64,000 nucleotides of DNA from Acidimicrobiia bacterium (GTDB lineage Bacteria > Actinomycetota > Acidimicrobiia > Spongiisociales > ZC4RG35). The translations under genes and the position numbers were made by a program. Location of the stretch: NCBI GenBank assembly GCA_965203555.1, contig CBDBCY010000004.1, forward strand, positions 1,728,001-1,792,000, given 5' to 3'. Of this stretch, positions 41,044-63,199 are shown piece by piece. The notes below the pieces were generated by a model, which saw nothing but the letters and a program-made list of their open reading frames with translations, was not told the origin of the DNA and did not search any database. The stretch's first letter is position 1. Each line of letters starts with the position of its first letter.

Positions 41044-42114
41044 ATGCCAGACGAACCATCGGACCATGGGGGCGAGACCAGCGACGGTACCGAGAGCTCC
41101 GAAGGCGGCAACCTGAGCCTGTTCGGCATGGCTCTCTGGGGACCGGACGGGCCACCCGAACGGGTCTTCGGTAGGCATGATTGGGGGGTGTGCTCAGATG
41201 ATGACGGGCACCCTGACAAATGCTGGGGACATACCTCGCCCGTCAGAGAACCCGTCGCGATTCCGCCTCCGGAGATGGTCCTCTCACGAGAAGAGATGCG
41301 GGAGATCGCATTGGGTTACCGGCCCATCGACATGAACGACAAGTGGCTGGCGTTCATGGAAGACGACCGCCTGTTCCTTCACCGGAGTTGGACCGGTTAC
41401 GGCATTTATGAGGTGAGATTCGCGGCCAAAGGGCTCAGTTGGACCACCGAGACCGGCTTCATGCCCACCTCGGCAAGAGTTGAGAGCGATCCCCGCCGCT
41501 ACAACCCGGACGACTTTGATCCGATCTGGGAGCGTGACTTCCTGAGAGACCTGATCGTGCACGTCTCCGGAGAGCCGATGCCAATCTCGCTACCAATAGT
41601 CCTGCATGGCGGACCTACAATCGAAGCCGTGCTCGGCGACATCACTGCCGAAGACGTCGACGCCATCGTCAACGCCGCCAACACGAGGCTGGTCGACGGG
41701 ACCGGCGTAAACGGAGCCATTCACGATGCGGCGGGCCCGGAACTGCTCGCTCATTGCAAGACGCTGAAGGGTTGCCCCGTCGGACGCGCCAAGATCACTC
41801 CGGGCTTCCGGCTGGATGCTCGATGGGTCATCCACACCGTCGGGCCACAGTGGCGGGGCGGAACCCAGGGCGAACCGGTGCTGCTCGAGTCGTGCTACCG
41901 CGAGTCCCTCGCCCGCGCCGACGAGGTGGGTGCCAATAGTGTGGCCTTCCCGGCGCTCGCCACCGGCGCTCACGGCTATCCGCTCAAAGCGGCCGCCAGA
42001 ATCGCCGTCGACACCGTTCGCTCGATCTCAACCGAAGTCCAATTGATCCGCTTCGTCTGTTTCGACAGACCGACCCTCAGAGCCTTCCAATCCGCGATTG
42101 ACCACGACAGTTAG
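41044..42114 (+). CDS. uncharacterised HRSWTG domain fused to a YmdB/MacroD-type macrodomain
   Basis: GDIT..DVDAIVNAAN..L..GTGVNGAIH.AAG, VIHTVGP, VAFPALATG; upstream MNDKW..FMEDDRLFLHRSWTG. Confidence 0.88.
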   Translation: MPDEPSDHGGETSDGTESSEGGNLSLFGMALWGPDGPPERVFGRHDWGVCSDDDGHPDKCWGHTSPVREPVAIPPPEMVLSREEMREIALGYRPIDMNDKWLAFMEDDRLFLHRSWTGYGIYEVRFAAKGLSWTTETGFMPTSARVESDPRRYNPDDFDPIWERDFLRDLIVHVSGEPMPISLPIVLHGGPTIEAVLGDITAEDVDAIVNAANTRLVDGTGVNGAIHDAAGPELLAHCKTLKGCPVGRAKITPGFRLDARWVIHTVGPQWRGGTQGEPVLLESCYRESLARADEVGANSVAFPALATGAHGYPLKAAARIAVDTVRSISTEVQLIRFVCFDRPTLRAFQSAIDHDS

Positions 42115-45874: not shown

Positions 45875-47056
45875 CTAATTCACCTCCGCCACTGCTGGAG
45901 GGAAGGCCCTGATGATCTTGTCGTTCACCCTCCATCCTTTGGGACTCTTTGTTACTAATCCAACACTGCGGAGCCTGTTGAGATCACGGCTCAAGGTCCT
46001 GGGTCCCCTACTTGCGTACAGACGTGCGAGTTTCGAGCTTAGCTCGGGCAATTCTCTGTTGGGGGTGTCGATGCCGGAAGGCATGGCGAGCACGAGTGTT
46101 CTCTGGCGGTCTCTCGCTGGACTCGAAGGGAACTGCCTCATCGTCTCATGGACGAAGTTGATCCAGGTCACGCTGAAGTGCTGTTGCAGCACCAACTCGA
46201 TATGATCTCGAATACCGTCCACCAGACCCTGGATGGCGTAGGCCAGGAATCCGGCGGTCTCGCCGGTCCGGCTGGCTTTGGCCAGTTGGCGGTAGTACCG
46301 GTCTCGTGTCAGGTTGTAGTGATTCGACAATAGGTGGGCGGCGGGGAGAGGGACCATCCCGCACCTTGCGAGGATCAAGAATTCCAGTAGCCTTGCCGTC
46401 CGCCCGTTTCCGTCGCCGAAGGGATGTATCCAAGCGAGGTAGAGATGAGCATAGATCGCACAGGCCACGGCCAAGGCGAACCGTATCTCGGTGTCCTCCG
46501 ACCGGAAGGTGTCGCTCTCCAGCCATTCGGCCAGCCGATCAACCAGGTACCGGCAGTCTTGGACCGGAGCACCCTGATAGGCCAGAACGCCGGCCGGGTA
46601 GTCACGTATCTGTCCGGGTACTACGTACGATTCGTATTCGGTTCCCTCCAAGACTTGGCGGTTGAACTCACAAATCAAGTCCCCTGTGATAACAGGTGAC
46701 TCACCCTGCATCGCATCCTCAGCGATGGCTTGCAGCGCTTCAAGGACATTCTTTACTTCCCTCTCCTGATAGGCGCGGGAGGGAGGTGCGCTGAAGGTCC
46801 CGCGGAGGATGCCGGCTACCTGGTCCTCGGTGAGAGTGTTTCCCTCAATAGCCGTCGTTGCCTGTGCGCCTTTGATCAGAGCGACTTCATAGAAGCGACG
46901 GGCTGCTTCAGGTCGTAACGGAGTCCCGGCAAGATATTCGCACATGGACCGCGCCTCGCCCAACAGCATCCAGATCCTGGGGCCGAGCGAGTTGATATCG
47001 GTGGCCATGAAGGTGATCCATGGATGGGATTTCAGATAGGAGCACACAGGCATCAC
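45875..47056 (-). CDS. Fic family protein
   Basis: HPFGDGNGRTAR active-site motif and N-terminal TTAIEGN inhibitory motif. Confidence 0.93.
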   Translation of the reverse strand: MMPVCSYLKSHPWITFMATDINSLGPRIWMLLGEARSMCEYLAGTPLRPEAARRFYEVALIKGAQATTAIEGNTLTEDQVAGILRGTFSAPPSRAYQEREVKNVLEALQAIAEDAMQGESPVITGDLICEFNRQVLEGTEYESYVVPGQIRDYPAGVLAYQGAPVQDCRYLVDRLAEWLESDTFRSEDTEIRFALAVACAIYAHLYLAWIHPFGDGNGRTARLLEFLILARCGMVPLPAAHLLSNHYNLTRDRYYRQLAKASRTGETAGFLAYAIQGLVDGIRDHIELVLQQHFSVTWINFVHETMRQFPSSPARDRQRTLVLAMPSGIDTPNRELPELSSKLARLYASRGPRTLSRDLNRLRSVGLVTKSPKGWRVNDKIIRAFPPAVAEVN

Positions 47057-48688: not shown

Positions 48689-51040
48689 TTAACCAGACCC
48701 TCTCGACGTTGACCCTCCGCCATAAAGCCACGGGCCGATTTGATCCCACGCCAATTCCAGCAGGTTCTTCGTACGTTCTTCGATCACTTCCTTCGTCCAC
48801 TCCTCTACACCGGCCATATTGTTCAGCAGCCTTAGATGCTCCTGTCTTTGAAGTAAGAGTGTTGCCTTCCTACCAAAATCAATGCCTGCCACCCGGGCTG
48901 CTTCAAATAACTGTTCACGCTCTGCTTCTGACCGCGCCGCGAGCGTCCTGTAGAAGAGTCGCTTCTTCTCCCACCCCGCATTTCCGATCGTAGCGTTCTC
49001 GCGCTCCGGCAACAACACCAGGTTTCCCAAGAGTTGGCGGGTATCTGGGTCCTTATAGATGTCCGCTTCCCAGCCTTCTTGAGGCTGCGATGACGGCGCA
49101 ACATGCTCGACGGTCATGTATTTGGAACTAGTCCAAGTGCTGTGATTCATGTAAGCGGTCTCATCGCTGACTATGACACCGTCTCTAGTCAGCCAGCCCT
49201 TTCTCTCTTCGTGATCTCTAGCATGGTGGCTGGCGGCTAGGATGAGAAAACGTTTTAGAGAGCTCGGGCCGAACCTTCCGATTTTGGCAGTTCTCACCGC
49301 ATCAATCCAGGTGTCCCGATCCACGATTTGAAGGGCTTTGGAATCAAGCAGGCCCCGGAACACTGCACGCAAATGCTGAACCCTCAAGAGTTGATTGTTC
49401 TTCCCGACTCCTAAACAGAGGGGAGCGGCACCGGATGCAGTATTCCCCGCCATGACCTCTCGAAGGCACGAATCAATGCCAGCTGTGCCCCCAGTTGCAG
49501 CTCTCCTCAACACAACAAATGCGGTGACCGCCTTTGTCGCTTCCAACAACTGCTTCCCTGAGGACATGAGCCCCTCATGAGCCCAATAGCGGGCAAGGAT
49601 CGGGACAACTAAGGTTGTGCGCATATCCATCAAAAACTTAAGGCACAGTTTCAACATGTCAATGGTTATCTCATCCCAACCTCGTTCGCCCAATGTGGCT
49701 ATCGCTTTGCTGTTCCAGTATTGCGTACGAAAGTTGTTGAGGTCATATAGGGCTGTAACAAACTTCCTGCCAGAATCAGGGCTGCTCCTTTCAGACGCTA
49801 CGAACTGATCTCTCATGTAGCGACGTTGGGTAACCAAGTCGGAGGACATCTTCTGTCCCGTCATATAGAGGGCAAATGCAGTGACCAACTGTTTAACCTC
49901 TCGTTGTCTGGAGGACGCGTCTTCATAAGTAGCCGCGATAGTGTCTTCTATGTCGCCCCAATGCCTTTCGGAATCAGATCCAGCATATCCCTCCATCCGT
50001 TCTTCAAATCGAGCGACCAAAGGCTTACACGTTTCAAGAGCAGTCAGGGGTTCCCCGGTTGTATTGAGGCCATCGAATATGTCGAAGGCATCCTCCTCCT
50101 TTTGGGTTTCAACGCGAGTTAAGAGGACATTCTGCGTAAGATAGGAAGAAAACAGTAGCAGTCGAATAAATGCTTGTGAACTCGGCCCGTCTATGACAAC
50201 CATGCAGCAGCTATGTTGCATGGCATCCCTGTATTTCGCCAACCGAATAAACAATGACCGACAAGGGTACTCGAAGAAAAGGCCACTATCCACGATAGAG
50301 ATGTCTTCATGGGAGTCACCACCCTTTGAATCCTCCATTGTGTCAATAAGGTATTGATATAACATCTCCTTGATGTATTCGTAGATGCGCCGGACGTGAC
50401 TTCTAGCCGCGTCGTTACGCTCGGTATCACTCACTGGCATAGCGACATCTTCCCGTTCGTTAGAGAACCCGGCAATAAACATCGCTACAGGAGAACTGTA
50501 TGTCGCGTCTTGTCGCGAGGGCGCACGCACATCGGAGGACCGGATGATACGCGGATATGGGAAATAGTCAGCGAGCTTAATTAGGCGACCCACAGCGCAC
50601 TGATAGAGCAGCCACTGTTGCTCCTCAGCTTCTGCCTGAACCCACGCCTTGGTGTGACAGCACAGGGATGTCATTTGGCCGCGATTGTCTGCAAGGAGAT
50701 CAAATAATGCGCAAGCGACCAGGGTTAGAGATGTCAGCCGCTGCTGTCCGTCCACTATGTCAAGTGACATCCCTTCAAACGTTCGCTCTCCTTCCGTGGC
50801 CGCTAGAATTATGGAACCAAGGTACGTATAGGCTGAATCATCAACCGGGCTGTTGCAATGCCGATGGAACCCGCGAAGACAATCACCTAGAAGACGGGAT
50901 AGATGCATCCGGTCCCAATGATATGGTCGCTGGTAGATAGGTACTCTGTAACCGACATTGCCATTGTGGGAGTTCATCGTCTCCCAGAAGCTACCGGTCG
51001 TAGCTTTGAATAATTCTCTTCCTAGGGTTCGCATCGTCAA
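48689..51040 (-). CDS. sspE: SspE-like DUF262/DUF1524 NTPase-HNH nickase
   Basis: 783 aa; VPIYQRPYHW, DGQQR, NTTGEPLTALET.KP, TVEHVAP..LGNLVLL...EN; same locus and strand as sspABCD. Confidence 0.85.
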   Translation of the reverse strand: MTMRTLGRELFKATTGSFWETMNSHNGNVGYRVPIYQRPYHWDRMHLSRLLGDCLRGFHRHCNSPVDDSAYTYLGSIILAATEGERTFEGMSLDIVDGQQRLTSLTLVACALFDLLADNRGQMTSLCCHTKAWVQAEAEEQQWLLYQCAVGRLIKLADYFPYPRIIRSSDVRAPSRQDATYSSPVAMFIAGFSNEREDVAMPVSDTERNDAARSHVRRIYEYIKEMLYQYLIDTMEDSKGGDSHEDISIVDSGLFFEYPCRSLFIRLAKYRDAMQHSCCMVVIDGPSSQAFIRLLLFSSYLTQNVLLTRVETQKEEDAFDIFDGLNTTGEPLTALETCKPLVARFEERMEGYAGSDSERHWGDIEDTIAATYEDASSRQREVKQLVTAFALYMTGQKMSSDLVTQRRYMRDQFVASERSSPDSGRKFVTALYDLNNFRTQYWNSKAIATLGERGWDEITIDMLKLCLKFLMDMRTTLVVPILARYWAHEGLMSSGKQLLEATKAVTAFVVLRRAATGGTAGIDSCLREVMAGNTASGAAPLCLGVGKNNQLLRVQHLRAVFRGLLDSKALQIVDRDTWIDAVRTAKIGRFGPSSLKRFLILAASHHARDHEERKGWLTRDGVIVSDETAYMNHSTWTSSKYMTVEHVAPSSQPQEGWEADIYKDPDTRQLLGNLVLLPERENATIGNAGWEKKRLFYRTLAARSEAEREQLFEAARVAGIDFGRKATLLLQRQEHLRLLNNMAGVEEWTKEVIEERTKNLLELAWDQIGPWLYGGGSTSRGSG

Positions 51041-51411
51041 TAAGGGTACCCTGCACGGCAGGGCTGATTGGGTAGCTTGTTGAGTTGTCCGGTGAAGGCC
51101 GCAGGACAGCCTGCGGAAGTAGGCGTTGCCGGAACCCTAAGACGGCGTTGCACCTTAACACCACCTCTTCCGACCGCATCTAGGCCTTCCATCACCCTTC
51201 AGACCCTACCCCTGCAACCCGCTCTACCCAGGCACTTCCCTAGACCGGTGCAGACAGATACGTAGGCACTGCCAGAGTTGTCCCCATCGGAGCCGATCTC
51301 CCAAAGAACAATGTGGGGCACTTTGAGCAGTTCTCGTGGAATTCTCTGTTGATCAGCGCTGGCCGCGGCCTTCGATCGCGGGCTATTGGGCTTGTCTATC
51401 ACACGTTGTCT

Positions 51412-51876
51412 TTAGGTGGAGAGCATCTTTACTAGCCCACGGGCGAGATTCTGGAGGGCTGGAAGGTGGCCGGCTTCCATCATGTCCTTGACCAGTGGAA
51501 TTCCGCCCGCCGCGTATCCCTCTGCAATGTTTAAGACCTTACGCGGGTCTGCCACAACGAAGGGATCACCTGTATGCGCTATGGCTATCAGCAGGAGGAA
51601 CTCGATAGCAGCGAGGTCTCGCTGGAAGACTACGCCGGTGATGAAATCGTAACGGTCGGCGGCGTCGAAGGGCATGAATTGACGTTGTGATGCGCCTACC
51701 GCTGCAGCCAGAAGCCAAAAGTCGATGTAGCGAGTGAACGGAGCCTCCTCAATGCTCTTGCGTCTGCCACCTGTCGTGGCAAAGGTTGTGCTGTAGAGGT
51801 TCAGATCCTCCCGGTAGGCTCCAGGGATGTGGATGGAAAGGGGCGCAAATGGGTTGAAATCTCGGGATAGTGCCAT
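51412..51876 (-). CDS. pbeD: PbeD / phosphorothioation-associated protein 4-like
   Basis: 154 aa directly after the ATPase; PF.RY.D..LLAAAVG, LIAIA.T.DP, I.E.YA.GG pattern. Confidence 0.65.
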   Translation of the reverse strand: MALSRDFNPFAPLSIHIPGAYREDLNLYSTTFATTGGRRKSIEEAPFTRYIDFWLLAAAVGASQRQFMPFDAADRYDFITGVVFQRDLAAIEFLLLIAIAHTGDPFVVADPRKVLNIAEGYAAGGIPLVKDMMEAGHLPALQNLARGLVKMLST

Positions 51877-51878
51877 GT

Positions 51879-54008
51879 TCAGACCCTAGTCTTTCGTTCA
51901 CACAGACCGCATGATGAGTAGTGGTCGCAATCACACAGCAACGTCTCCAGTCGACCCGTCGCTGGGTCGTTGACTAGTTGCCTTGGATAGTGATCGGTGA
52001 AGGTCATCGTGTAGGTACGCCCGGCGTACCGATCTAGAATGTCTTCCACCCCTTGGACTTCACTCCCTGTAAGAAACATGACAAGTTGTGTTGCATTTTG
52101 AGCGGCATATTCCAGAAGCGATCTTCTCACAAGGGCGCTTGTCATCCCTAATGGTGTGTCCACAACATTAGGAGCTTTTACGCCACTAACCCGGACGAGG
52201 CCGAGGATGAAGGCCAAGGTCAGAGCCCTGCGTTGCGCTCCACTAAGGTCTCTATCTGGATCTAGCCGCTGTTCATCGGAGCCGAACACCACAATGTCAT
52301 GGTCGCGGCTTAGTTCCGCTCGGTTGATCAGACCTCCCACCTTGGGGTCGACTACTATCATCTGTAGGAAGATTTCGTTCATAGCGGCACTTACCTCTTG
52401 AACTGTTTCACTCTCCAAGGTCTCAATGGTGCCTTTAATCACAGTTTGTAAATCGGTAGCGGCCACTTCCTCGGCCAATCGCCGCCGATACTTCTTCCTT
52501 TTCCTTTGGGCGGCTAGTCGATCCTTCTTCAGTCGTGCCAATCTTCCTTTTGTGAATCGAATCCGCTCTGCCACCCTTACCGCCTCACCGGCTAGGCGTT
52601 TCATTTCACCTTCTTCCTCGTTCACCATCGCTTGAAGCTGGCTGATATCATGCTCTGGAATTGTGGAAATCCTAGTCTCTAGCTCCTTGACCAGCTTTTC
52701 GAGTCGTTGTTGATCGTGATCACAACGAGCAATGCCTTCCAGGGTGCCATTCGCCCGGGCCACCCAGGAGTGAGGATCATCGTCCCGACCGTTGGAGCGT
52801 TCTAGGAACCGAACGCCTGTGCTGAGATGGAGGAGCGTCTCGTGGCTTTCGTCAAGTCTTTTGACCTCAGCTAGAAGTTTGTAAAGCGCGGTGTGACCTT
52901 TTGTCCCTTCTGATACGTCCCGCCCACAGATGCACTTCTCACGACTGAGGCGGTCTCGCACGACATCTGGCAGTGTGTCAGGGATCACCCCTGTCGTTTC
53001 TAGCGTCCTAAGAAGATCACCGGCATAGGAAATCTGGTCAGATGCGATTCGCAATAGCACATCGGAATTGTTTATGAGGGCACGCTGTTCTTTGACCAGG
53101 TTGGTGTAAACCTTACGCTGGGACGCCAGCTCCCTCTCTCGCTCCTTGAGTTCGAGACCGAGTTGCTTCCGACGTCCACCACCGGCCGCTAGCGCTTCAT
53201 GTAGCGCTTCAGTGGCTTTGCGTTTACGGGTGTCGGTCGCCTGGCGGTCATTTTCTATTCTCTTCTTGTGTTCTTCCAGTTTCTGCAGGTGATCGGTTTG
53301 CTCATCCTCTTGCTTCGCTAGCTGCTCTAGGTCTGTGCCAGCAGCCTCCTTTCGGACAGCCGTCACTGCCTGTCTGCGGGATATCTCAACATGGGTATCT
53401 GCCTTTTCGAGGACATCTAGACCGAGTAGCTGCCTCACGGCGCGCTGGACTCGATCACGCTTCGCCGATCGTTCGTCTGTTGCTTCGATAAAAGACAGCG
53501 CACGGTCACCATCGATGAAAAAGATGTCCTTGAGGCTGGTCGGCAGGACCCGGTTCTTTATGAAGGCGGCAGGATTCAAAACGGGTTGAAAGCCTGTTGA
53601 TGTATCCTCCAGGAGCATCAGATCCGGTTCCTCAACCTCAAATGAGCCAGCCACGGTAGGCCGCTCCTTGGTGGTGCGCACAAGGTCATATGTACGTTCC
53701 TTGCCCGTCTGATCATCAATGGTGACGAACCGTATTTCTACTTCGGTTTCGCACGTCGTGCCCTCACTATGGGGATCCCAATCCAAGGGATGCATTCGGT
53801 AAATGGTTCTCCTGCCAGGTAGAGCCTTATCACCAAACAGCCCCCAGGTGAGAGCGTGTAAGAGAGTTGTCTTCCCAGTGCCGTTCTCGGCGCGAAGCAT
53901 AGTCAAAGGACGCTCGGGGTCGTTGGAGAACTTGACAGCCACTCTTCGGAGTTGACGGAAATTGCGGATTCTTGTGTGAAGGATTTTGATCATGGGGATG
54001 GTTGCCAC
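51879..54008 (-). CDS. pbeC: SMC/Rad50-like coiled-coil ABC ATPase (PbeC/DndD-like)
   Basis: Walker A AENGTGKTT, FFIDGD, long coiled coil with central CICG, signature LSGAQ, VVDTPLG; the real start may be ATG 53993. Confidence 0.75.
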   Translation of the reverse strand: MATIPMIKILHTRIRNFRQLRRVAVKFSNDPERPLTMLRAENGTGKTTLLHALTWGLFGDKALPGRRTIYRMHPLDWDPHSEGTTCETEVEIRFVTIDDQTGKERTYDLVRTTKERPTVAGSFEVEEPDLMLLEDTSTGFQPVLNPAAFIKNRVLPTSLKDIFFIDGDRALSFIEATDERSAKRDRVQRAVRQLLGLDVLEKADTHVEISRRQAVTAVRKEAAGTDLEQLAKQEDEQTDHLQKLEEHKKRIENDRQATDTRKRKATEALHEALAAGGGRRKQLGLELKERERELASQRKVYTNLVKEQRALINNSDVLLRIASDQISYAGDLLRTLETTGVIPDTLPDVVRDRLSREKCICGRDVSEGTKGHTALYKLLAEVKRLDESHETLLHLSTGVRFLERSNGRDDDPHSWVARANGTLEGIARCDHDQQRLEKLVKELETRISTIPEHDISQLQAMVNEEEGEMKRLAGEAVRVAERIRFTKGRLARLKKDRLAAQRKRKKYRRRLAEEVAATDLQTVIKGTIETLESETVQEVSAAMNEIFLQMIVVDPKVGGLINRAELSRDHDIVVFGSDEQRLDPDRDLSGAQRRALTLAFILGLVRVSGVKAPNVVDTPLGMTSALVRRSLLEYAAQNATQLVMFLTGSEVQGVEDILDRYAGRTYTMTFTDHYPRQLVNDPATGRLETLLCDCDHYSSCGLCERKTRV

Positions 54009-54223
54009 CCATCCTTTAGGAGGACTGTGGCTAAGGCGTGAGTCTGGTCGGTAACCTTCTTTTGGATCTGGGTTCTCGCTGCCAGGTGTTCTCTCTCAAG
54101 TACCACGATTTGGACCAGCGTTTCGAAGACGTCACGTCGGTAGCCCACAACCCGGTTAGCTTCGTTAATCAAGTTCACTTGATCCTGGAGCACCGACAAT
54201 AGTTTTTGCTGATTAACTGCCAT
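53990..54223 (-). CDS. pbeB: small helical protein (PbeB-like)
   Basis: 77 aa between the helicase and the ATPase, AGGA RBS, overlaps the ATPase start; name from position only. Confidence 0.6.
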   Translation of the reverse strand: MAVNQQKLLSVLQDQVNLINEANRVVGYRRDVFETLVQIVVLEREHLAARTQIQKKVTDQTHALATVLLKDGWQPSP

Positions 54224-54252
54224 TGTACTATTCCTAACTCATCTCCGTCTTC

Positions 54253-56406
54253 TTAAACAATGTAATCTAGCCGCACATCCTGGAGCACATCTCGTGGTCC
54301 CCGCGGGGACGCACGATTACGGGCCAGACTGGAAAAAGCGTCACATCGAGCAAGCTCGCCGCTAATCAGCCGCCGTACGTCGTCATCCTTAGGTTCACCA
54401 GGCGGTGGCAAAACCAGGAAGTCATGGATCGTGGCGTACTCCTTCCTAGTTGCGGGGCACATACGAAGGACTCGCCCCCGGCGCTGTATCCACTGGCGTT
54501 CCACCGTAGTACTTGCAAGAATGATCGCCGTGGAGATCTCAGGAACATTCAGCCCCTCGTCCAGGACCCGCTTGGCCGTCAGTATGTGTAGGGATCCCCT
54601 CCGGAACCCCTGCAAGACCGCATCGACCAGCTTGGCTTTGCCTGTTTCGTTGGCTGTGATCTGGTGATATCTTAGCCCCAAAGATCTGACAACGTGATTG
54701 ACTGTGTCAAGCTGTTGCGGATCCTTGTCGGTGGCGTAGACAAGTGTGTGCCTGACGCGGTGACCGGAACCCTGCCCGAGCAACTCCGTGAGTTTCCCAA
54801 GCTTTCCGGTCGCAGTCTCCAAGACCAACCGACGCCTATTCCGAAGGACTTGAAGTCGCTCTTCTTCCTGCACGCTCGGATTATCCCCAGCCATTCCAGC
54901 GAGTCTTCTGATCTGATAGCTGAATTGACGGTACTCCTCAAGTTCGGCGTGGCTGAGGGTTATCGGGTGGACGTGATATTCATATGGCACGAGGCAAACA
55001 CCGATCGCATCTGCAAGACCGAACTCGAACACGACGTCTCCGAAGTAGTCCACAAGCCGAGCTGAGCCTTCAGCATCGTATTGACGCTCAGGAGTGGCCG
55101 ACAGTCCCAACCGGTAGGCCACGTGCAATGGTGGTGAACGGAGGAAAGAACCTGCTCCGAGGTTGTGCACCTCATCGGCGATCAACATCATCGGTCCTTC
55201 GTAGCGGTCCAGAAGGGTCCGGAACTCTGGATCGTTCAGGAAGTCATTCGTCACGATGATTGTTTCCACCCCTTCCACTCCTAACTCGATTCGCTGCAGC
55301 CGTTGGTCAATCTCTCGGAGGCGTCGTCGCCGTTCATGCCTGCCTGCGACGTACGGCAAGAGACCAAAGTCCTCACACTCCTCAGCCCATTGAGCGATCA
55401 GTGGACGAGTTGGGGCTGCAACTACCACAGCTAGGTGGCGAAGCTCACGCCAGAGACGCCAGGCACAGAGAAGAGCGGTGATTGTCTTTCCGGAGCCGGT
55501 GGCCATGGAGAGAATGCCCTGTCGCCCGGCCCCTTCCCACCGCAGTACTGCTGTTGCTTGGTGCGAGTAACGACCAGTCTCCCAAACGAGGTCCGACGGC
55601 GGAGCGAAACCCCTTTGGTCGAATCTCACCTGAACAAATCTATTCCCCTCACTGCGTGTCAGCTTGCCCTCTAGCTGGAGTGCCTTGTGGTAGTCCGCTT
55701 CAGTTGGCGGCCTAGTCGTGTCGTATGACTGAACCAAGCCCGTTCGTAGGGCGAGAGGAAGATCCACAGCTATGGCGTGCGGTTTGGAGTTCGACCAATA
55801 GGCCTCGAACTCCTCAATCACCTCTTGGCATGCTGTCTCACTGTCTCCACCTCGCCAGCTGCGGTGAAGGTTGAGTCTCTCCACATTGCCGACTAATGCC
55901 CTTCCGGTAAAATTCGCTGATCCCGATAGGATCGCCACGTCACCATCTGATCGGAAAATCCACTCCTTGAGATGGAATATGGCATCTTGTACCATGACGA
56001 TCTTCATCACAAGTCGGCGGGATGCTATCAGATAGGCGAAGCACTGCTTGGTGTGTTCAGCTAGAGCACTGGCTAGCGCAGTCTCATCATTGAAGGCCGC
56101 TTCAAATGCCTCCATGAGCACCTCCACTGGTGTTCTAGTACCCAGCCGGATGGCATCCTGATCGGAGTCTGACAGCACAGGGCTTACCAACAGGCGCAGT
56201 GGTTGATTGCTCCGCAGAATGTAGGCAGCCAGACCATGGGAAAGCTCTCGAAGCGCTGCTCCACCAAAGTAGCCAACCATGCAATCGAAGCTATCAGCTA
56301 CCTGAAGCGCCGGGATGATCACGTCACTGACTACCGCGTCGTCTGGGCGGCGCCAGGTTGGTTTACGGTTGTCCAGAAGTCTCAGTCGTGACGGTAATTG
56401 TCCCAT
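54253..56406 (-). CDS. pbeA: PLD/HKD nuclease fused to an SF2 helicase (PbeA-like)
   Basis: VGYF, FHLK...SGSANFT; MATGSGKT, DEVH, GLSATPER, LDEGLNVP, QRRGRVLR. Confidence 0.78.
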   Translation of the reverse strand: MGQLPSRLRLLDNRKPTWRRPDDAVVSDVIIPALQVADSFDCMVGYFGGAALRELSHGLAAYILRSNQPLRLLVSPVLSDSDQDAIRLGTRTPVEVLMEAFEAAFNDETALASALAEHTKQCFAYLIASRRLVMKIVMVQDAIFHLKEWIFRSDGDVAILSGSANFTGRALVGNVERLNLHRSWRGGDSETACQEVIEEFEAYWSNSKPHAIAVDLPLALRTGLVQSYDTTRPPTEADYHKALQLEGKLTRSEGNRFVQVRFDQRGFAPPSDLVWETGRYSHQATAVLRWEGAGRQGILSMATGSGKTITALLCAWRLWRELRHLAVVVAAPTRPLIAQWAEECEDFGLLPYVAGRHERRRRLREIDQRLQRIELGVEGVETIIVTNDFLNDPEFRTLLDRYEGPMMLIADEVHNLGAGSFLRSPPLHVAYRLGLSATPERQYDAEGSARLVDYFGDVVFEFGLADAIGVCLVPYEYHVHPITLSHAELEEYRQFSYQIRRLAGMAGDNPSVQEEERLQVLRNRRRLVLETATGKLGKLTELLGQGSGHRVRHTLVYATDKDPQQLDTVNHVVRSLGLRYHQITANETGKAKLVDAVLQGFRRGSLHILTAKRVLDEGLNVPEISTAIILASTTVERQWIQRRGRVLRMCPATRKEYATIHDFLVLPPPGEPKDDDVRRLISGELARCDAFSSLARNRASPRGPRDVLQDVRLDYIV

Positions 56407-56411
56407 CCTTT

Positions 56412-57260
56412 TCAAAGGGCGCATACCGTGCATGGGGGTGCGTCGTCCTCTTCGTCGAGGACTCCTTCCAGGGCTTCAACCAAGGGGAGGTTAGCTCGTG
56501 CTCTTTTGGCGCGAGCCTTGGCTGCTTCGTGACGTTCAAGAATTTGGTCCCGTCGCGACACTAGCTGCACTAACGTTTCGCCACCAGACCAGGTGTATTG
56601 GCGTCCCCGCATGGCCCGATCGCCGAAATCGGCGTCACCGTCTACCCCGGCATCGGTAAGTACCTTCTGCTCGATGGCTACGGCGCGTTCGAATAGTTCC
56701 GGGTGTTGTTCGGATAGGCCGACCCATTCGGCCTTGCGTTGGTAGAAACAGAAGTAGCACCCAGACCGAGTGCGCCATTCGTAGTAGGAGGGTAGCCCGA
56801 TCCCGGCGTCTTCCAGGATTCTGAGCACTTGGTGGTAATCGACGTTGTCCTCGACAAACGGGAAGCGGGTCTTGATGTTTGGTTTAGTGGAGATATAGCC
56901 TTTCCGGTTGGATTCGTCGGCCCGGATCGCAACATATGAGATCGCGGGTGCGTCGCCGATCCACTCCTCGATTGGTTTGATCTTCATGATTTTGGTACAC
57001 CAGCGCATCTGGGGAGATGGAAGAGTGCCACGGAACACTTCAAACCAGTGGTCAAAACCTCTTTCGGCGTTGAGCCGTTCAATTGGTTTGCCAAGGATCA
57101 CCTCTAACCGGGTGAGGTATTCGTAGGTTTCAGGGAGTTCGGCTCCGGTGTCACAGAAGAAGTACTCCATGTCTGGGATCTTGTCACTCATGTAGACAGC
57201 AAGGGCGCTCGAGTCCTTGCCCCCGGAGATGCCGCAGATGTGGCGGACCGTTTCAACCAT
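56412..57260 (-). CDS. sspD: PAPS-reductase-family ATP pyrophosphatase
   Basis: ISGGKDSSALA, DTG.ELPETY, RWCT, RSGCYFCFYQR, C-terminal CTVC. Confidence 0.88.
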   Translation of the reverse strand: MVETVRHICGISGGKDSSALAVYMSDKIPDMEYFFCDTGAELPETYEYLTRLEVILGKPIERLNAERGFDHWFEVFRGTLPSPQMRWCTKIMKIKPIEEWIGDAPAISYVAIRADESNRKGYISTKPNIKTRFPFVEDNVDYHQVLRILEDAGIGLPSYYEWRTRSGCYFCFYQRKAEWVGLSEQHPELFERAVAIEQKVLTDAGVDGDADFGDRAMRGRQYTWSGGETLVQLVSRRDQILERHEAAKARAKRARANLPLVEALEGVLDEEDDAPPCTVCAL

Positions 57261-60200
57261 GTTGGACCCATAGATTGGGAGCTTCACCCGTGGATTCTTC
57301 ATCGATGGTCATCGAGGGCAGTAGCCGCTCGCCCAATAGTGCGAGAAGGGCGTCTTGTGCCCGCTGTGGGGTACCGGTGACATCGGTTATTTGCTGAATG
57401 AACTTGTCAAGGGCAGAATTGAGTTTGTCACGTTCGTCGTGGTCTACGCTAACGAGGCGGGCATCCTCTCTGCCGTCGGGGCGGGTGAACGTTACCCGGA
57501 ACGCCTCGAACGGACCTCCCCCATCGGCTCGGTGTTGCGCGTGAAGTGCGACCAGGCGGCGAAAGGATGCGACCTGTTGCGGAAGTTCATGCTCGAATCG
57601 ACGTAGGTCTTCATCTCGCCACTCGGCCGGTGCCTTTTGCAAAACAACGGTGGCAACTGCCTTGATCCAATCGGTGTCGGACTCGATGTGGGTGTTAGCG
57701 AGCCTGAGGACGAAGGCGCGGACATTGGGATCCAGCACTTCTCCCGAAAGAGCCTTTGCCTGTCCGGCGATCGCACTACGGGTTTTCTCAGCGGCAATGG
57801 TGAGCAGCGACTGGAGCAGACGATCCAAGAGATTGGAGTAGGCGGACTCCAGTTCCTTGATCACTTCGACCACGGCTTGGGCGTAGTCATGTGCGTCGCG
57901 GTAGGTGTCAGCGTCGGCTGGAACGGGCGTGAATCCAAGGGCTTCGGGAAGCTTGGTGAACAGCAGATCGTCAGGTTCTACTGCAACTAGCAAGGCGTCC
58001 CTGGCTGCACGGGCTGGCGAGGTGAGGTTGTCGGTTCTGCGAGTGTAGTTGTCGAGTTGTCTGACCCTAGCAAGTAGGTGTCCAACGACAGCGAGCACGT
58101 TCGACACTCGATGTTTGCGGAATCTAGGTTTGATGTGAAGGTGTGTCGCGAAAGCGCCGATGGCGTGTCGGCGTGCCCCTGTTGTGTTAGCGAAGTGCTT
58201 GATCTCGAAATGTGCTGGGTTGCGAACCATTCGCTGCGACAGTTCGGATGTGAGCAGTGGTTTGAAGGTGCCGTGCTCGTAGATTGCGATCTTGTCAGCG
58301 TCAACTAGGAGACCGGTAGTGACAAAGACAGGCAGAACTGCAGCTTTCATTCCTACCGGAGGTGAGAGAAGAACTTTGTATACATCCCGAAGGTTGATGC
58401 GACGCGTTTTTGCCCGTGTGAATTCAGTCATGAGCACATCCCAAGCTGGGCGTACCGGTGACTTGTGGCTAGGACTCCGGAAGGTCATGGTCTGGTTCCG
58501 AGTGTCGAGACCGTGAAGCTCGGTGTATTTCAGGAATGCTCTGTACATGGCCATTTCGGGTCCGTATCCCGACAGGCCAAGATTGGTTTTTTCTCCATGA
58601 TTGATCATTGCTTCGAGGAGGACACGGCGTGCCTTGGCTCCCTGGGACGTTAGAGAAGTTCTGTTGAGCATTTCGTTGCGGACTTCTGGAGTCCCTGGAT
58701 AGGCCTTGTCGGCGGCCTGTGAGAGTGCCGCAGAACCGCGGCCCCCGAACAATTCGGCGCTCCGCTGATCACCCAACAAAAGTAGCCACCGAGAAGTGTT
58801 CGGAGCGAAGGTGTCCGCAAGTGCTGCGTCGAGCATGGCCCGGGATTGCGCCAACCTCTCCCCCAGTTCTTGACGGGCTACCCAATCGCCAGCGACCATC
58901 GGATCCTGTAATGCCATGTTTACAGCGGCAACTTCTTTTGCCGCGCTCGCAAGAGCTGATAGGTGTGAAGGGACCACGGTCACAACCGGTTTGGCCAGAT
59001 GTCCGTCGGCGTGCGCCAAAGTGGGTAACTCCGATTGTTTGTCCACAATGAGGAGAACCTCCCCGTCGTAATCGGAGAAGGCATCCGGTGGTTCTACAAC
59101 ATCGGCACCGGACGCGTACCGGCGTTTGAAGACCCGCAACGTCTGTTTCTCGGCGCTGTGCCTTGCCGCCACTACAGGTGAAGGTTCACCTATCTCGGAG
59201 AGGATCTCCACGAGGGTGGAGCGCCCTGTGATGTGGCGAGAAAGGTTAAGGATGCGCCCTATGTCCACATCGGTTCCCTGCCAAATCCGATACTCGTCTG
59301 CGAAGTCCCTATACGTGACGATGCCTCTAGCTTCAAGTTCGTCCAGTGTCACGCCCACATTGTTGTAACTGACTTCAAGGACCTGGCGTGATGCCCTGAT
59401 CGTCCCAGATGAAGAGACTAAGTTGAGCAACGCTATCCCTTTGAGTAGCCGCTCCTGCGCTGGAGTGAGTCCGTGGGAATCCCGGATCCGCACTGAAATC
59501 TCGGTCCAGCGACTTGACTGCTGTTCGACGATGCCATTCGACACGAAGTAGTCGTAGACGGTTTCAAGCCCAATTGAAGGCAGGTGTTCATGAGGGTCGA
59601 CCCTGCGGGAAGCCAAAGAAGACAACACACTCGACCGATCCGGACCGGCTAAGAAAGAGAAGAGCGTCCTTTCGTGCTGCCCGAAACGGTTGCACAGTTC
59701 AGGAACAACCAAAGCAGCGATGGGATGCAGTGGATAACAGGAAGCAATCCCTTCGGGCGTTGCGAGGTCTCTGACACCCAGCGGCTTCATGTCCTTTGCA
59801 AGCATTTCAGACCATCGGTGGATCCGGTTCCTTAATTCCGCGTCGTTGATCGTGAAGACAGTCCGGATGAGAGCGCGTGTCTGAGCTGGCGACTCAACAT
59901 AAGCGATGTCTTCGAAACGACCCTGAACCTTAGCCCATTCCCGACGCTGCGTTACGTTGGTGCCCCCTAGGTAGTCCTCAAAGGAGAGATGCTGAAGGGT
60001 CAACAAGAAGATAGGAAGGCCCCCCTGGCTTTGGCCGGCTTCTGCTAACTGTTGAAGCAGATAGGGATCCGAGTCGCCATCGTCGCGGAAAGCCTCAAGG
60101 CTCTTACCGAACTCGTCAACAATCAGCATCAGTGGGGCTTCCCGTGCCAAGCATTTTGCTACTTCGACAAGGGCGCCCGGTGAAGGACCGGACCGGCGGG

Positions 60201-60729
60201 GATCAGACGTACTGGCGTCTTCGAGGGCACCCCTTAGAGTGGGGGCCGCTGCAAAGATACGCCTTGAAGGAATCGAGCCATACCTCTGAATTACAGCCGC
60301 TTTTAGCGCCCGGAGGATGGTGTGACCTATCAGCTCCCTTTCGGCAGTTACCAACCCACTCTGGAAACCTTCCCCTTCGGCTCCATGACGCCCGCGCGCT
60401 TCCCGAATTAGCCTGCTTACTGGTTCGGATGTCACCTTGATCAGTTGCAATGCGGCGTCATGAGTTTGGGGATGGTCCCCGAATGCCGCATCAATTAGCA
60501 ATGCGAGTGAGGACTTCCCTGATCCGTACGGCCCCGTGAGCGACCACGCCCCACCGGCTGGCCCGTCAACTGCCGTGCGAGCTATCCGTTCAAGAACATC
60601 AAGCGCACGCGCGGTGACCACATACCCATCAAGTGGCTCCGTTCGTGCTTTATCGCGTTCCAGATTCGCAGATCGGGCAAACCGGCCTGCGACCGAGATC
60701 CTGTCCGCCAGAGTCACCATCGCTATCAA
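57253..60729 (-). CDS. sspC: large P-loop ATPase (SspC)
   Basis: FARSANLERD, TGPYGSGKSS, IVDEFGK.LE, EWAKVQGRF, YPLHP, QHERTLFSFL. Confidence 0.85.
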   Translation of the reverse strand: MIAMVTLADRISVAGRFARSANLERDKARTEPLDGYVVTARALDVLERIARTAVDGPAGGAWSLTGPYGSGKSSLALLIDAAFGDHPQTHDAALQLIKVTSEPVSRLIREARGRHGAEGEGFQSGLVTAERELIGHTILRALKAAVIQRYGSIPSRRIFAAAPTLRGALEDASTSDPRRSGPSPGALVEVAKCLAREAPLMLIVDEFGKSLEAFRDDGDSDPYLLQQLAEAGQSQGGLPIFLLTLQHLSFEDYLGGTNVTQRREWAKVQGRFEDIAYVESPAQTRALIRTVFTINDAELRNRIHRWSEMLAKDMKPLGVRDLATPEGIASCYPLHPIAALVVPELCNRFGQHERTLFSFLAGPDRSSVLSSLASRRVDPHEHLPSIGLETVYDYFVSNGIVEQQSSRWTEISVRIRDSHGLTPAQERLLKGIALLNLVSSSGTIRASRQVLEVSYNNVGVTLDELEARGIVTYRDFADEYRIWQGTDVDIGRILNLSRHITGRSTLVEILSEIGEPSPVVAARHSAEKQTLRVFKRRYASGADVVEPPDAFSDYDGEVLLIVDKQSELPTLAHADGHLAKPVVTVVPSHLSALASAAKEVAAVNMALQDPMVAGDWVARQELGERLAQSRAMLDAALADTFAPNTSRWLLLLGDQRSAELFGGRGSAALSQAADKAYPGTPEVRNEMLNRTSLTSQGAKARRVLLEAMINHGEKTNLGLSGYGPEMAMYRAFLKYTELHGLDTRNQTMTFRSPSHKSPVRPAWDVLMTEFTRAKTRRINLRDVYKVLLSPPVGMKAAVLPVFVTTGLLVDADKIAIYEHGTFKPLLTSELSQRMVRNPAHFEIKHFANTTGARRHAIGAFATHLHIKPRFRKHRVSNVLAVVGHLLARVRQLDNYTRRTDNLTSPARAARDALLVAVEPDDLLFTKLPEALGFTPVPADADTYRDAHDYAQAVVEVIKELESAYSNLLDRLLQSLLTIAAEKTRSAIAGQAKALSGEVLDPNVRAFVLRLANTHIESDTDWIKAVATVVLQKAPAEWRDEDLRRFEHELPQQVASFRRLVALHAQHRADGGGPFEAFRVTFTRPDGREDARLVSVDHDERDKLNSALDKFIQQITDVTGTPQRAQDALLALLGERLLPSMTIDEESTGEAPNLWVQHG

Positions 60730-61814
60730 GCCACAGCCACGCCAGAAGCAAGATGCAACTGCCGCTCTGCGTCGCTAGGGTTGCGGCCGAGCCCGATAGC
60801 TTCTATGACCTCATCGTTCACCGGCAGATCCCCTCTCTCGTGGTCGACAAACAAACAGCCGGGGTCACCCTGCGGCATCTTTGTCGGGGACCCTCCGTAG
60901 TAACCATTCAGGACTCTGACCGCAACGACCCCGGGTGTCTCGCGCCAAGCTAACTGCAATCCCCCCGTTGGAGTGACAAGGTCAAGATCCTCTACCTGTT
61001 GGAGAGAAGGCTCAAGCGCTTCCGAGAGTTCGGACTCGCTTAGCTTAAAGATGCGTCCCGGTGCACCGGGCTCGTGCGCTAGTCGGCTCAGGTTGACTGT
61101 GCTGCCAGAAATGCCGGTCCGAGCCACGAAGTCAAGTGCCGCATAGGTGACAACTTCCGACGGCAGGGTGGGTTTCGGACCCAGAGTGAACCTAAACCGG
61201 CCCGTGGCCGGAGAACGGTCGATAAGGCGCAATTCGCGCATCGGACAATCAAGAATCTCATCGATGCTGCGGCGAACCGACCGTGCTGGTGGTCCGTAAG
61301 TCCGCAGCAATGCCCTAACATCCTTCTGCCGCGAGGTAGAGTGCGGGTTCCCCCAGGATGAGACAGCTTCAAGGTAGGTTTCAATAGCCAAATCTAGATC
61401 TCTGTCCTCAAACTCAATCGGCTGAAACTCGTTAAAGGCCAACCACCATATCGGAAGTCTCGATCCCGGAGCCAATAGGAGCCAGTGCAACAACCACAGA
61501 GTCCCGGGATCCTCCATGTAGGGATCCCATCCTCCCTCCCCAAACAAGGAGTATCCGATGCGAGTAGGAATTAGTCCAGGCGAGCGCCGATTCGGTGCCT
61601 TTTCGTCCTCCACCAACAGCCTTGCAGCCAACCCCCAGAAGCGGATGGATCGTGCCATGTTCTTGCCTACTCCGATTACGACTGGAGCATCATTCCGGCT
61701 GAAGACATAAGGGTCCCTGGCCGCAAACCGGTACGCCTTGCGGAACCATCCGTAGCGAGGATGAAAAGTCTCGTGACGCGCGAAGACCGCTTTTGCCGCG
61801 TCAACCAACCGCAT
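60726..61814 (-). CDS. sspB: DUF4007 protein (SspB nickase)
   Basis: FARHETFHPRYGW..K, GVGKNM..SIRFW, DPYMEDPGTLWLLHW, CPMREL.L. Confidence 0.88.
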   Translation of the reverse strand: MRLVDAAKAVFARHETFHPRYGWFRKAYRFAARDPYVFSRNDAPVVIGVGKNMARSIRFWGLAARLLVEDEKAPNRRSPGLIPTRIGYSLFGEGGWDPYMEDPGTLWLLHWLLLAPGSRLPIWWLAFNEFQPIEFEDRDLDLAIETYLEAVSSWGNPHSTSRQKDVRALLRTYGPPARSVRRSIDEILDCPMRELRLIDRSPATGRFRFTLGPKPTLPSEVVTYAALDFVARTGISGSTVNLSRLAHEPGAPGRIFKLSESELSEALEPSLQQVEDLDLVTPTGGLQLAWRETPGVVAVRVLNGYYGGSPTKMPQGDPGCLFVDHERGDLPVNDEVIEAIGLGRNPSDAERQLHLASGVAVA

Positions 61815-62976
61815 GTAATTCCTTTCCATACTGCATTGCACGAATATATGACACGGCTGTGACAGACTTCTCCACCGCTATGTCGATGTCCTTGGAGGTT
61901 GTAAAACGCCCTAGGCTAAACCTGATTGACTCGAATGCGGCCTCCCGACTGAGCCCCATAGCCAACAGGACCTGCGAAGGCTCAATCGAACCGGAGCTAC
62001 AGGCACTACCGGCCGACACCGCCACTGGGTCCATGTTCACAAGGACAGCATCGGCGTCGACGCCTGCGAAACGTAGGTTTGTCGTATTCGGCAAGCGTCG
62101 ACTCAAATTTCCATTCTCGTAAACATCGGGAATGCTCCCCTTCAGTTCCCTGACAAGACGGTCTCGAAGCGTGGCTACCCGTCTGCCTTCCTCCTCACAC
62201 TCCTCCGACGCGATTAGAGCCGCCGCTCCGAACCCCACAGCACCAGCAACGTTCAATGAACCAGACCTCAATCCTCTCTCATGCCCACCGCCGTGAATGA
62301 GAGGTCTCAACCGCGCCAACCCACTGCGGGTCCCAACAAGGGCACCCACTCCACCTGGACCACAGATCTTGTGTCCGCTGAGAGAGACCAGATCAGCCCC
62401 CATCGTCTCCATATCGAAGTCCAGCCGCCCAACCATTTGGGTGATATCGCAGTGGAACAGAGCACCGGCCGCGTGGACCCGCTCGGAAATCTCGGCCACC
62501 GGGTTCAACACCCCCGTCTCGCTGTTAGCCGCCATGACGGACACCAAGAGCACATCCGGGCACACCATTGCCGCCACAACATCTGGATCCACAAGCCCAC
62601 CGGATGTAACTGGAATCACCTCTACCTTCGCAAGACCCTGTGCTGCCATCCAACGTGCAGGCGCTAGAACCGACTCATGCTCAACTGCAGACACCAGCAC
62701 CCGTGACCGGCTGGCCCTGTCCCCTTCAACTATCCCTCTCAGAGCCAGGTTGTTAGCCTCGGTCGCCCCAGCGGTGAACACCACCCTGCCTGGTCTGCCA
62801 CCTACCAGCCCAGCAACCTGTTCGCGTGCTTGGCTAACCGCCGCAGCTTGTCGACGTCCAAAGCCATGCACCGAGGAGGCATTACCAATACCCTTCGCCA
62901 AGATTGACGACATCTCTTCAAGAACTCGGGGGTCAAGTGGACCAGACCCGTTGTAATCCAGGTAAACACCGTTCAA
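61801..62976 (-). CDS. sspA: IscS-like cysteine desulfurase (SspA)
   Basis: YLDYN, GNASS.H, GATEANN, SGHK.CGP.G.G, RSGS.N, SAGSACSSG; overlaps sspB. Confidence 0.92.
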   Translation of the reverse strand: MNGVYLDYNGSGPLDPRVLEEMSSILAKGIGNASSVHGFGRRQAAAVSQAREQVAGLVGGRPGRVVFTAGATEANNLALRGIVEGDRASRSRVLVSAVEHESVLAPARWMAAQGLAKVEVIPVTSGGLVDPDVVAAMVCPDVLLVSVMAANSETGVLNPVAEISERVHAAGALFHCDITQMVGRLDFDMETMGADLVSLSGHKICGPGGVGALVGTRSGLARLRPLIHGGGHERGLRSGSLNVAGAVGFGAAALIASEECEEEGRRVATLRDRLVRELKGSIPDVYENGNLSRRLPNTTNLRFAGVDADAVLVNMDPVAVSAGSACSSGSIEPSQVLLAMGLSREAAFESIRFSLGRFTTSKDIDIAVEKSVTAVSYIRAMQYGKELHAVG

Positions 62977-63199
62977 GAGGGTCCTCCGTCCAGTGCAGGG
63001 AGAATAGTTTCAGGTGGAAAAACTATCGCATGCATCCCGGTTTTGGTTGAGCACCTCCTGCGTTTTCACTCCATCCTACCTACTGATAGAGTGCTGGTTG
63101 AGCATTCAAACTGCGTATTCCAGTCGACCGAGAGATGGTCTGGGCTGGTGCCAATCACCGGTCGGTGTCGGGAGCCCATCCTCATTACTGAACCGCCCT

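Follow-up and report, generated by a model that had tools for sequence, protein, structure and literature searches.

Defence systems built on phosphorothioate (PT) modification of DNA are taught as fixed pairs, in which Dnd writers go with DndFGH or Pbe, and Ssp writers go with SspE or SspFGH. The SspABCD-SspE pair is known from Vibrio cyclitrophicus FF75, Escherichia coli 3234/A and Streptomyces yokosukanensis (PMC9646914), and one sspBCD writer can serve both SspFGH and SspE, additively, in a combination found in 36 genomes (PMC8092258). The characterised Pbe system, DndCDEA-PbeABCD of Haloterrigena jeotgali A29, provides a PT-dependent defence for which pbeB, pbeC and pbeD are indispensable (PMC6459918). 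Pbe is consistently presented as a partner of Dnd in the accessible portions of the literature (PMC11676413, PMC13223576, PMC9646914, PMC12707154, PMC10853773). Here we analyse a locus in which a complete set of Ssp genes adjoins a Pbe module in a genome lacking dnd genes. It lies in a stretch of 64,000 nucleotides (hereafter the window; positions 1,728,001-1,792,000 of the forward strand of contig CBDBCY010000004.1) of Acidimicrobiia bacterium GCA_965203555.1 (Genome Taxonomy Database (GTDB) lineage Bacteria; Actinomycetota; Acidimicrobiia; Spongiisociales; ZC4RG35), whose assembly comprises 3.42 Mb in 4 contigs and is 95% complete. The locus is probably a self/non-self system that is written by Ssp and read by Pbe, with SspE as a second effector, and that was acquired horizontally and is built of three units.

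Gene order and identity of the Ssp and Pbe proteins

Nine co-oriented open reading frames (ORFs) occupy positions 48689-62976 of the minus strand in the order sspA-B-C-D, pbeA-B-C-D and sspE (Table 1), and all of those listed in an earlier note on this DNA were recovered. With the longest-ORF starts, sspA overlaps sspB by 41 bp, sspB overlaps sspC by 4, sspC overlaps sspD by 50 and sspD overlaps pbeA by 22; a gap of 29 bp follows between pbeA and pbeB, then an overlap of 19 bp between pbeB and pbeC and a gap of 2 bp before pbeD. The largest gap among the first eight genes is 29 bp, in keeping with the note's statement that they overlap or lie no more than 30 bp apart. As the stop of sspD and the start of pbeA lie in overlapping frames, ssp and pbe appear to form a single operon and to be translationally linked. 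Scans for promoters and terminators were uninformative: promoter-like sites numbered 4 where 7.4 were expected, and terminator-like sites 16 where 14.4 were expected.

The PADLOC scan that the earlier note had proposed assigned seven of the nine proteins, namely SspA-E, PbeA and PbeC, and left the 77-aa (amino acid) and 154-aa proteins unmatched. All five Ssp models were matched end to end, as in described SspABCD-SspE systems, so that the note's assignment of genes 1-4 and 9 stands. Pfam agrees with these identities (Aminotran_5, DUF4007, PAPS_reduct, PLDc_2 with ResIII and Helicase_C, AAA_23, and GmrSD_N with GmrSD_C), and NCBIfam models and sequence comparisons with solved structures are consistent with them. 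SspD is far closer to the SspD model (6.6e-108) than to the DndC model (2.9e-6), and sspD is the sole copy in the source genome. An identity as a type 4 BREX system was considered and rejected, as the BrxC (2.9e-86) and BrxP (7.4e-12) matches fall far below the Ssp scores of SspC and SspD; PglZ and BrxL models had no match among the nine locus proteins in the PADLOC scan, a genome-wide search for them not having been made.

PbeA carries the motifs H154/K156/GSxN, GSGKT and DEVH, and H154, K156, G171, S172, N174, GxGKT and DExH are invariant across 14 relatives. Its Pfam matches are ResIII and Helicase_C, with PLDc_2 at 23 bits, below the cut-off of 27, and the closest solved helicase is XPB/Rad25 (1.6e-17). 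PbeC has a Walker A motif, a C359-I-C361 hook within its coiled coil and, at its C-terminus (window positions 51879-51950), a four-cysteine motif, CDC...CGLC (CxC-x5-6-CxxC); both cysteine motifs are found in 73 of 73 full-length relatives. SspE aligns with the solved SspE structure 6jiv over residues 10-772 (1.6e-75) and retains the DGQQR motif and the HNH-type motif EH...N...N. In the translations of SspD, PbeA, PbeC and SspE, the catalytic motifs are thus intact.

The writer of the characterised Pbe system is DndCDEA, and linkage to such a writer is absent from the window locus, where SspABCD takes its place. Across the whole source genome, dndC models found only a 13.7-bit stretch inside sspD, the dndE family PF08870 had no match at E ≤ 1, and the dndD model matched pbeC itself and one 28.8-bit N-terminal ATP-binding cassette (ABC) stretch on another contig. 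The earlier note's claim that dnd genes are missing is thus borne out for dndC, dndD and dndE in a 95%-complete genome, and the genome-wide search found no dndCDE cluster elsewhere that might account for the Pbe module. To judge from these models, SspABCD appears to be the only PT writer of this genome. The SspF model (PADLOC PDLC02793) also had no match in the source genome, in a search with this single model that included no positive control and did not extend to SspG or SspH.

Linkage of Pbe modules to Ssp writers

An alignment built from 14 PbeA proteins served as the query against species-representative genomes and yielded 387 confirmed relatives. Locus counts given here and below refer to the best 80 of these 387, analysed with 10-kb flanks by tblastn with the window proteins; as the loci closest to the query, they describe the PbeA clade of the window and not all Pbe. 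These loci cover 12 phylum labels. At least two of SspB, SspC and SspD were encoded within 10 kb of pbeA in 66 of the 80 loci, and all three in 59. The synteny survey suggested by the earlier note found sspD directly upstream of pbeA and co-oriented with it in 37 of 80 loci. SspB, SspC and SspD were all missing from nine loci, six of which are incomplete on one flank. The other three have full flanks: in L078 the Pbe module is broken, and L067 and L071 carry the PADLOC candidate genes PDC-M33A/B/C, in which M33C is fused to an SspD-like PAPS-reductase domain. In the PDC-M33 genes, Pbe may have a sulfur-writing partner of a third type. Dehalococcoidia Pbe loci of the same clade without sspBCD are seen at L047:15307-21706, L067:15083-19450 and L071:15016-19582, and the ORF sizes of L047 equal those of the other two.

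Two unbiased samples were also drawn. An even draw of 401 genomes from the phylum of the window contained sspD in 6, including the source genome; a full PbeA lies directly beside sspD in 2 of the 5 others, and one more genome has PbeA on a different contig of a 300-contig assembly. The second sample, of 401 genomes from the class to which G401 belongs, contained sspD in 10, two of which were already known and were set aside; PbeA was found within 10 kb in 2 of the remaining 8, in one of them at two loci. Combined, PbeA occurs within 10 kb of sspD in 4 of 13 sspD-bearing genomes, which are small numbers. The SspF model matched in one of the 13, on a contig other than that of sspD, and no SspE relative was found in these 13 genomes with the window SspE as the single query (E ≤ 1e-10), a search that diverged SspE proteins could escape. 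In these two small samples, no other named partner accompanied sspD as often as Pbe.

The Ssp and Pbe genes also move together. In blastn comparisons with six loci (L005-L010) from metagenome-assembled genomes labelled Actinomycetota, Acidobacteriota and Pseudomonadota, the window showed 64-72% nucleotide identity over positions 51419-62978 only, that is, from sspA through pbeD. Since the homology is confined to this segment across three phyla, the eight genes travel as one block, without sspE and the spacer that precedes it. A hybrid origin unique to the source genome was rejected, as the eight-gene block is common to other phyla.

The Pbe proteins of the window also differ from those linked to Dnd. 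Of five Ssp-Pbe genomes searched for DndC, three lack it; in the other two (G403 and G404), it is encoded far away from the Ssp-Pbe locus. Each of these two genomes holds a second Pbe module beside dndC, adjoining dndBCDE/dndA-like genes, in addition to the first module beside sspBCD. This arrangement of one Pbe module per writer points to writer-specific pairing within single genomes. The two PbeA proteins of the same genome are only 26-33% identical, and the window PbeA is 27-30% identical to the two Dnd-linked ones. On the NCBIfam model TIGR04095 (cut-off 600 bits), the Dnd-linked PbeA of G403 scores 600 bits, over the cut-off, whereas Ssp-linked PbeA proteins score 361-368 and the window PbeA 344.5, all below it. 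The best PADLOC PbeC score is 679 bits for the Dnd-linked locus L087, against 178 for the window. Both Dnd-linked PbeC comparators keep the CxC hook but lack the C-terminal CxC-x5-6-CxxC motif that the window PbeC has. A FastTree of PbeA with 79 rows places the two Dnd-linked sequences apart from all 77 that are linked to Ssp or M33, across a branch of length 1.09 with a support of 100 (Shimodaira-Hasegawa-like support only); with an outgroup of just two rows, both on long branches, this split is indicative and no proof of a single origin. Taken from these comparisons, the Pbe proteins of the window appear to form a distinct Ssp-associated subfamily and not a newly moved Dnd-type module. The Ssp link in most of the 80 loci, the block transfer and this distinct subfamily lend no support to the earlier note's framing as a special hybrid, and the direction of any re-coupling of Pbe is not readable from these data.

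Several points weigh against a system that is written by Ssp, read by Pbe and joined by SspE. Arrangements of sspD and pbeA vary: sspD is convergent downstream in 18 loci and upstream with a gap of 420-4547 bp in 9, while 5 loci have it downstream in the same orientation and 1 has it divergent. Co-variation, measured by Mantel and Spearman statistics on pairwise identities from 49 loci with near-full SspC, SspD, PbeA and PbeC, is strong within each module (Spearman 0.83 and 0.94) but weak between SspCD and PbeAC (Mantel rho 0.31, a value that none of 500 permutations reached; 0.20 without the near clade of the window). The sspE gene has the lowest GC content of the locus (0.51-0.52) and stands 371 bp apart, outside the eight-gene block common to L005-L010. 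Rakesh, Aravind and Krishnan argue that PT genes are lacking beside some CxC/Pbe systems, and they question the PT-dependent restriction role of Pbe (PMC10853773). Cleavage of virus DNA was not seen in Haloterrigena, which leaves the role of the HKD domain open (PMC6459918).

These points bear first on the alternative that Pbe, as a CxC ABC-ATPase system, defends on its own without reading PT and adjoins ssp only through the clustering of defence genes. We consider this unlikely. It draws on the weak co-variation and varied arrangements, on CxC systems reported as independent of Dnd writers, some of them with methylases (PMC10853773), and on the 320 of 553 pbeAC pairs described as 'solitary' with respect to dndCD (PMC6459918); that 2019 count, however, is older than the Ssp name and may include Ssp-linked loci. 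Mere clustering also sits poorly with 66 of 80 loci being Ssp-linked, 37 of them with the sspD-pbeA junction, and with the overlapping frames, with the transfer of sspA-pbeD as a block, with the replacement of sspBCD by another PAPS-reductase module in L067 and L071, and with the retention of one Pbe module beside each writer where a genome has both. The weak co-variation suggests that the modules have been reshuffled often and that Ssp and Pbe proteins are unlikely to contact each other specifically; for DndCD and PbeAC, the Haloterrigena study gives a rho of 0.107 (PMC6459918). Weak co-variation is consistent with coupling of Ssp and Pbe through the DNA mark and not through fixed protein contacts, and it leaves room for a stand-alone Pbe.

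The same points bear on sspE, which could instead be an unrelated or decaying neighbour, with Pbe as the sole functional effector arm. Besides its position behind the spacer and its low GC content, the window's 7-row PbeA clade contains no relative with a co-oriented sspE; L008 and L009 have an SspE-like gene that is only 27-29% identical and lies on the opposite strand. Two small minus-strand ORFs in the spacer (50991-51402; 67 and 62 aa) have no Pfam matches and are absent from the block of the relatives. Against decay, the sspE frame is of full length, matches the SspE model end to end and the 6jiv structure almost throughout, and keeps its DGQQR and HNH-type motifs. Full-length SspE-like genes were found in 12 of the 80 loci, of which 8 have the gene immediately behind pbeD in the same orientation, and L056 and L065 share the gene order of the window, so that the three-module layout recurs. 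We therefore regard a role for sspE as a mere neighbour as the least probable of the alternatives weighed here. By its position, sspE appears to be a separate addition outside the shared eight-gene block, and we assume that it would use the SspABCD writer.

The locus lies in a region of lower GC content, which also holds the neighbouring defence-type genes listed in Table 1. Between 40 and 64 kb, 4-kb blocks have a GC content of 0.545-0.598, and blocks outside this interval 0.602-0.650. Metabolic genes lie on both sides of this island, including luciferase-like monooxygenase genes on each flank. No tRNA gene that could serve as an integration site was found in the window or in the 15.5 kb beyond it, and sspD was present in 0 of 3 same-family genomes searched.

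Some further observations were made on the surveyed loci. Over-long frames at L053:7541-12115 (1524 aa) and L010:9431-12172 (913 aa) end in PbeA, and one at L063:18723-21176 (817 aa) ends in SspD; these may be gene fusions or mere upstream extensions of open frames. Uncultured lineages account for many of the 80 loci, among them Poribacteria, Latescibacterota, Binatia and Aldehydirespiratoraceae. Two DNA runs that contain part of the window stretch are labelled as sponge metagenome, from which we claim no habitat.

Table 1. Genes and other features of the locus and its lower-GC surroundings, with the Pbe modules of two comparison genomes. Positions refer to the window unless a locus is named.
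Feature	Description	Position	Strand	Basis
sspA	cysteine desulfurase (sulfur donor), 391 aa	61801..62976	-	PADLOC SspA 2.7e-129, DndA 9.6e-126; Pfam Aminotran_5 1.8e-69
sspB	DUF4007 DNA-binding/nicking subunit, 371 aa	60726..61841	-	PADLOC SspB 7.7e-94; PF13182 8.4e-75; PDB SspB 6juf 3.8e-59
sspC	large BrxC-like ATPase, 1158 aa	57253..60729	-	PADLOC SspC E=0, 1025 bits, model 2-1102 of 1104
sspD	PAPS-reductase-type PP-loop sulfur transferase, 296 aa	56412..57302	-	PADLOC SspD 6.6e-108; SGGKDS PP-loop
pbeA	HKD (PLD-type) nuclease domain fused to XPB-like superfamily 2 (SF2) helicase, 726 aa	54253..56433	-	PADLOC PbeA 3.7e-178
pbeB	77-aa helical protein	53990..54223	-	position and size; conservation; predicted PbeC partner
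pbeC	CxC zinc-hook ABC ATPase (DndD sister), 709 aa	51879..54008	-	PADLOC PbeC 7.8e-53, DndD 3.5e-41
pbeD	predicted DndE-fold (ribbon-helix-helix type) DNA-binding protein, 154 aa	51412..51876	-	fold match to DndE structures
spacer	371 bp, between pbeD and sspE	51041..51411	.	blastn homology to L005-L010 ends at 51419-51446
sspE	DUF262 NTPase and DUF1524 HNH-type nickase, 783 aa	48689..51040	-	PADLOC SspE 3.2e-221, model 4-765 of 766
Macro-domain protein	lower-GC island neighbour	41038-42114		
McrB-like AAA_5	lower-GC island neighbour	42269-44311		
McrC	lower-GC island neighbour	44596-45858		
Fic/DOC protein	lower-GC island neighbour	45875-47056	-	
G403 Pbe modules	one Dnd-linked, one Ssp-linked	L087 (C1:336001-355000), Dnd-linked; L038, Ssp-linked		
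G404 Pbe modules	one Dnd-linked, one Ssp-linked	L088, Dnd-linked; L056, Ssp-linked		

Predicted structures of the two small Pbe proteins

Even at E ≤ 10, neither the 77-aa nor the 154-aa protein was matched by the PADLOC models for PbeB and PbeD. This blank is uninformative, because the models also fail on the small proteins of the two Dnd-linked Pbe loci, and they miss those of L038 as well. The window module has the same four-gene order and sizes as that of H. jeotgali, in which PbeB has 66 aa (77 here) and the last protein about 152 aa (154 here) (PMC6459918). In 61 of 80 loci, a homologue of the 77-aa protein with at least 88% coverage is encoded between pbeA and pbeC, and G27, Y28 and E43 do not vary among 28 sequences.

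We predicted a complex of three chains (PbeC, PbeD and PbeB), each with its own alignment, and scored PbeB. The interface score ipSAE between PbeB and PbeC was 0.70-0.72 in three runs (median 0.71) and 0.00 in all three controls. Of 80 solved complexes used to calibrate the tool, 58 attain its mark, as do 2 of 110 mismatched pairs; this calibration holds here only roughly, as own alignments and three chains depart from it. At least 77% of the contacts were common to the runs, with a partner confidence (predicted local distance difference test, pLDDT) of at least 78. The predicted contacts involve PbeC residues 195-213 and 502-531 and no residue of PbeD. From their position in the sequence, we read these segments as the outgoing and returning strands of the coiled coil beside the ATPase head, and the prediction thus supports binding of PbeB at the base of the PbeC coiled coil.

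PbeD matched the NCBIfam model TIGR04062 (dnd_assoc_4, DNA phosphorothioation-associated protein 4) only weakly (8.9e-7, below cut-off), and 9 of 36 members of its family match it at E ≤ 0.01. Modelled with 36 relatives, PbeD reached a pLDDT of 92.5. In an exhaustive structural alignment against 48,161 solved chains, the best match was DndE 7x4e (Z 8.1, root-mean-square deviation (rmsd) 3.5 Å, 110 residues aligned), followed by DndE 5wtu (Z 7.1, rmsd 3.0, 99 aligned), and the third and fourth rows fell to Z 6.5 (a relaxosome chain) and 4.0. Values of Z under 8 are common with this aligner; we base the call on the two DndE entries heading the list with near whole-chain coverage, from which the PbeD model appears to fold like DndE. 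Other searches did not recover this relation: the PbeD family profile did not find DndE among PDB sequences (top match E=0.14, an unrelated channel), and Foldseek with the PbeD model gave no match at E ≤ 0.001, DndE 5wtu being second at E=1.8. With PbeA and PbeC matched by PADLOC, PbeD predicted to have the DndE fold and PbeB fitting by position and size, the earlier identification of genes 5-8 as a Pbe module holds.

The likeness of these proteins to Dnd components raises the alternative that PbeC and PbeD are writer parts, which would add a second site-recognition or nicking activity for another motif or strand, and that PbeA alone restricts. The match of PbeC to DndD models (3.5e-41) and the predicted DndE fold of PbeD fit such a role, and CxC-DndE pairs have been proposed to trigger modification or to report its status (PMC10853773). 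On the other hand, sspBCD with iscS sufficed for PT-based protection in E. coli (PMC8092258), and in Haloterrigena dndCDEA alone gave PT-modified virus, whereas pbeB, pbeC and pbeD were each needed for defence (PMC6459918). We rate this alternative as improbable, slightly more so than a stand-alone Pbe.

A proposed division of labour and its implications

In the Ssp-written, Pbe-read system that we favour, SspABCD would mark host DNA, with SspA drawing sulfur from cysteine and SspD, through its PP-loop, handing it on, while SspB and SspC would locate and prepare the PT sites. PbeABCD would take the PT mark as 'self' and attack unmarked incoming DNA. Joined to the writer in one operon, Pbe would pass on together with it in a cassette of eight genes. 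In the module, PbeC (Rad50-like, with its CxC zinc hook) and PbeD (a putative DndE-fold DNA binder) would form a DNA-scanning core, PbeB would act as an adaptor or regulator that grips the PbeC coiled coil at its base, and PbeA, with its HKD nuclease and XPB-like helicase, would be motor and effector. SspE, the separate downstream addition, would use PT in the opposite way, its NTPase and nicking activities being stimulated by PT.

Mre11 holds Rad50, and kleisins hold SMC proteins, at the coiled coil beside the ATPase head. The predicted PbeB-PbeC contact resembles these complexes in that a zinc-hook coiled-coil ABC ATPase would bind a small partner on the coiled coil beside its head, a likeness that is architectural only. 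Compared with described SspABCD-SspE systems, the window differs in the four-gene Pbe module between sspD and sspE, translationally linked to sspD, and in the position of sspE outside the conserved cassette. It shares with SspABCD-SspFGH+SspE one Ssp writer and two effector modules in one locus (PMC8092258), the second module being Pbe here and SspFGH there. With SspFGH+SspE as precedent (PMC8092258), it is a reasonable inference by analogy that one modifier would serve two arms.

The CxC ABC ATPase-DndE systems (PMC10853773) consist of the same parts, namely an HKD-SF2 protein, a small protein, a CxC ABC ATPase and a DndE cognate, and the CxC hook and, by its model, the DndE fold of that re-annotation are confirmed on the window copy. 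The accessible text of that study couples CxC systems to DndD-type systems and methylases and contains no coupling to sspBCD. It describes the small protein as rapidly evolving and mostly disordered (PMC10853773), whereas here it is conserved at about 75 aa and modelled in the complex with a pLDDT of about 79.

The earlier note knew of no description of an Ssp-Pbe pairing, and we found none in the open literature text; supplementary tables of PMC6459918 and PMC8092258 may list such loci as 'solitary' or 'none'. In their accessible parts, the SspFGH paper does not mention Pbe (PMC8092258) and the Pbe paper does not mention Ssp (PMC6459918), and a 2026 BREX survey mentions neither Pbe nor CxC. 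The parts of the locus are thus of known kinds, and their pairing appears to be widespread and apparently undescribed. New here are a clean dnd-free case, a block boundary that excludes sspE, the predicted PbeD fold, the predicted PbeB-PbeC interface and the features of Ssp-type Pbe. The interface, if the prediction is right, offers a concrete and mutable contact, and genomes with Dnd-type and Ssp-type Pbe together would provide a natural test of writer-reader specificity.

Contrary to the fixed pairs in which PT defence is taught, the loci surveyed here link an entire Pbe clade with Ssp writers, over 12 phylum labels. We tentatively extend this to a possibility that we hold to be less likely than the system proposed above and that is rather speculative, namely that Ssp-type Pbe, with the four-cysteine tail of PbeC and a conserved PbeB, is the commonest effector partner of Ssp and senses one-strand PT through a PbeC-PbeD scanner clamped by PbeB. 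If true, this would explain much of the ~84% of sspBCD clusters without SspE or SspFGH (arithmetic from the counts in PMC8092258) and much of the 58% of pbeAC described as 'solitary' (320/553; PMC6459918). If Pbe reads single-strand PT, its sensing would be independent of symmetric double-strand marks, which would narrow the mechanism of Pbe.

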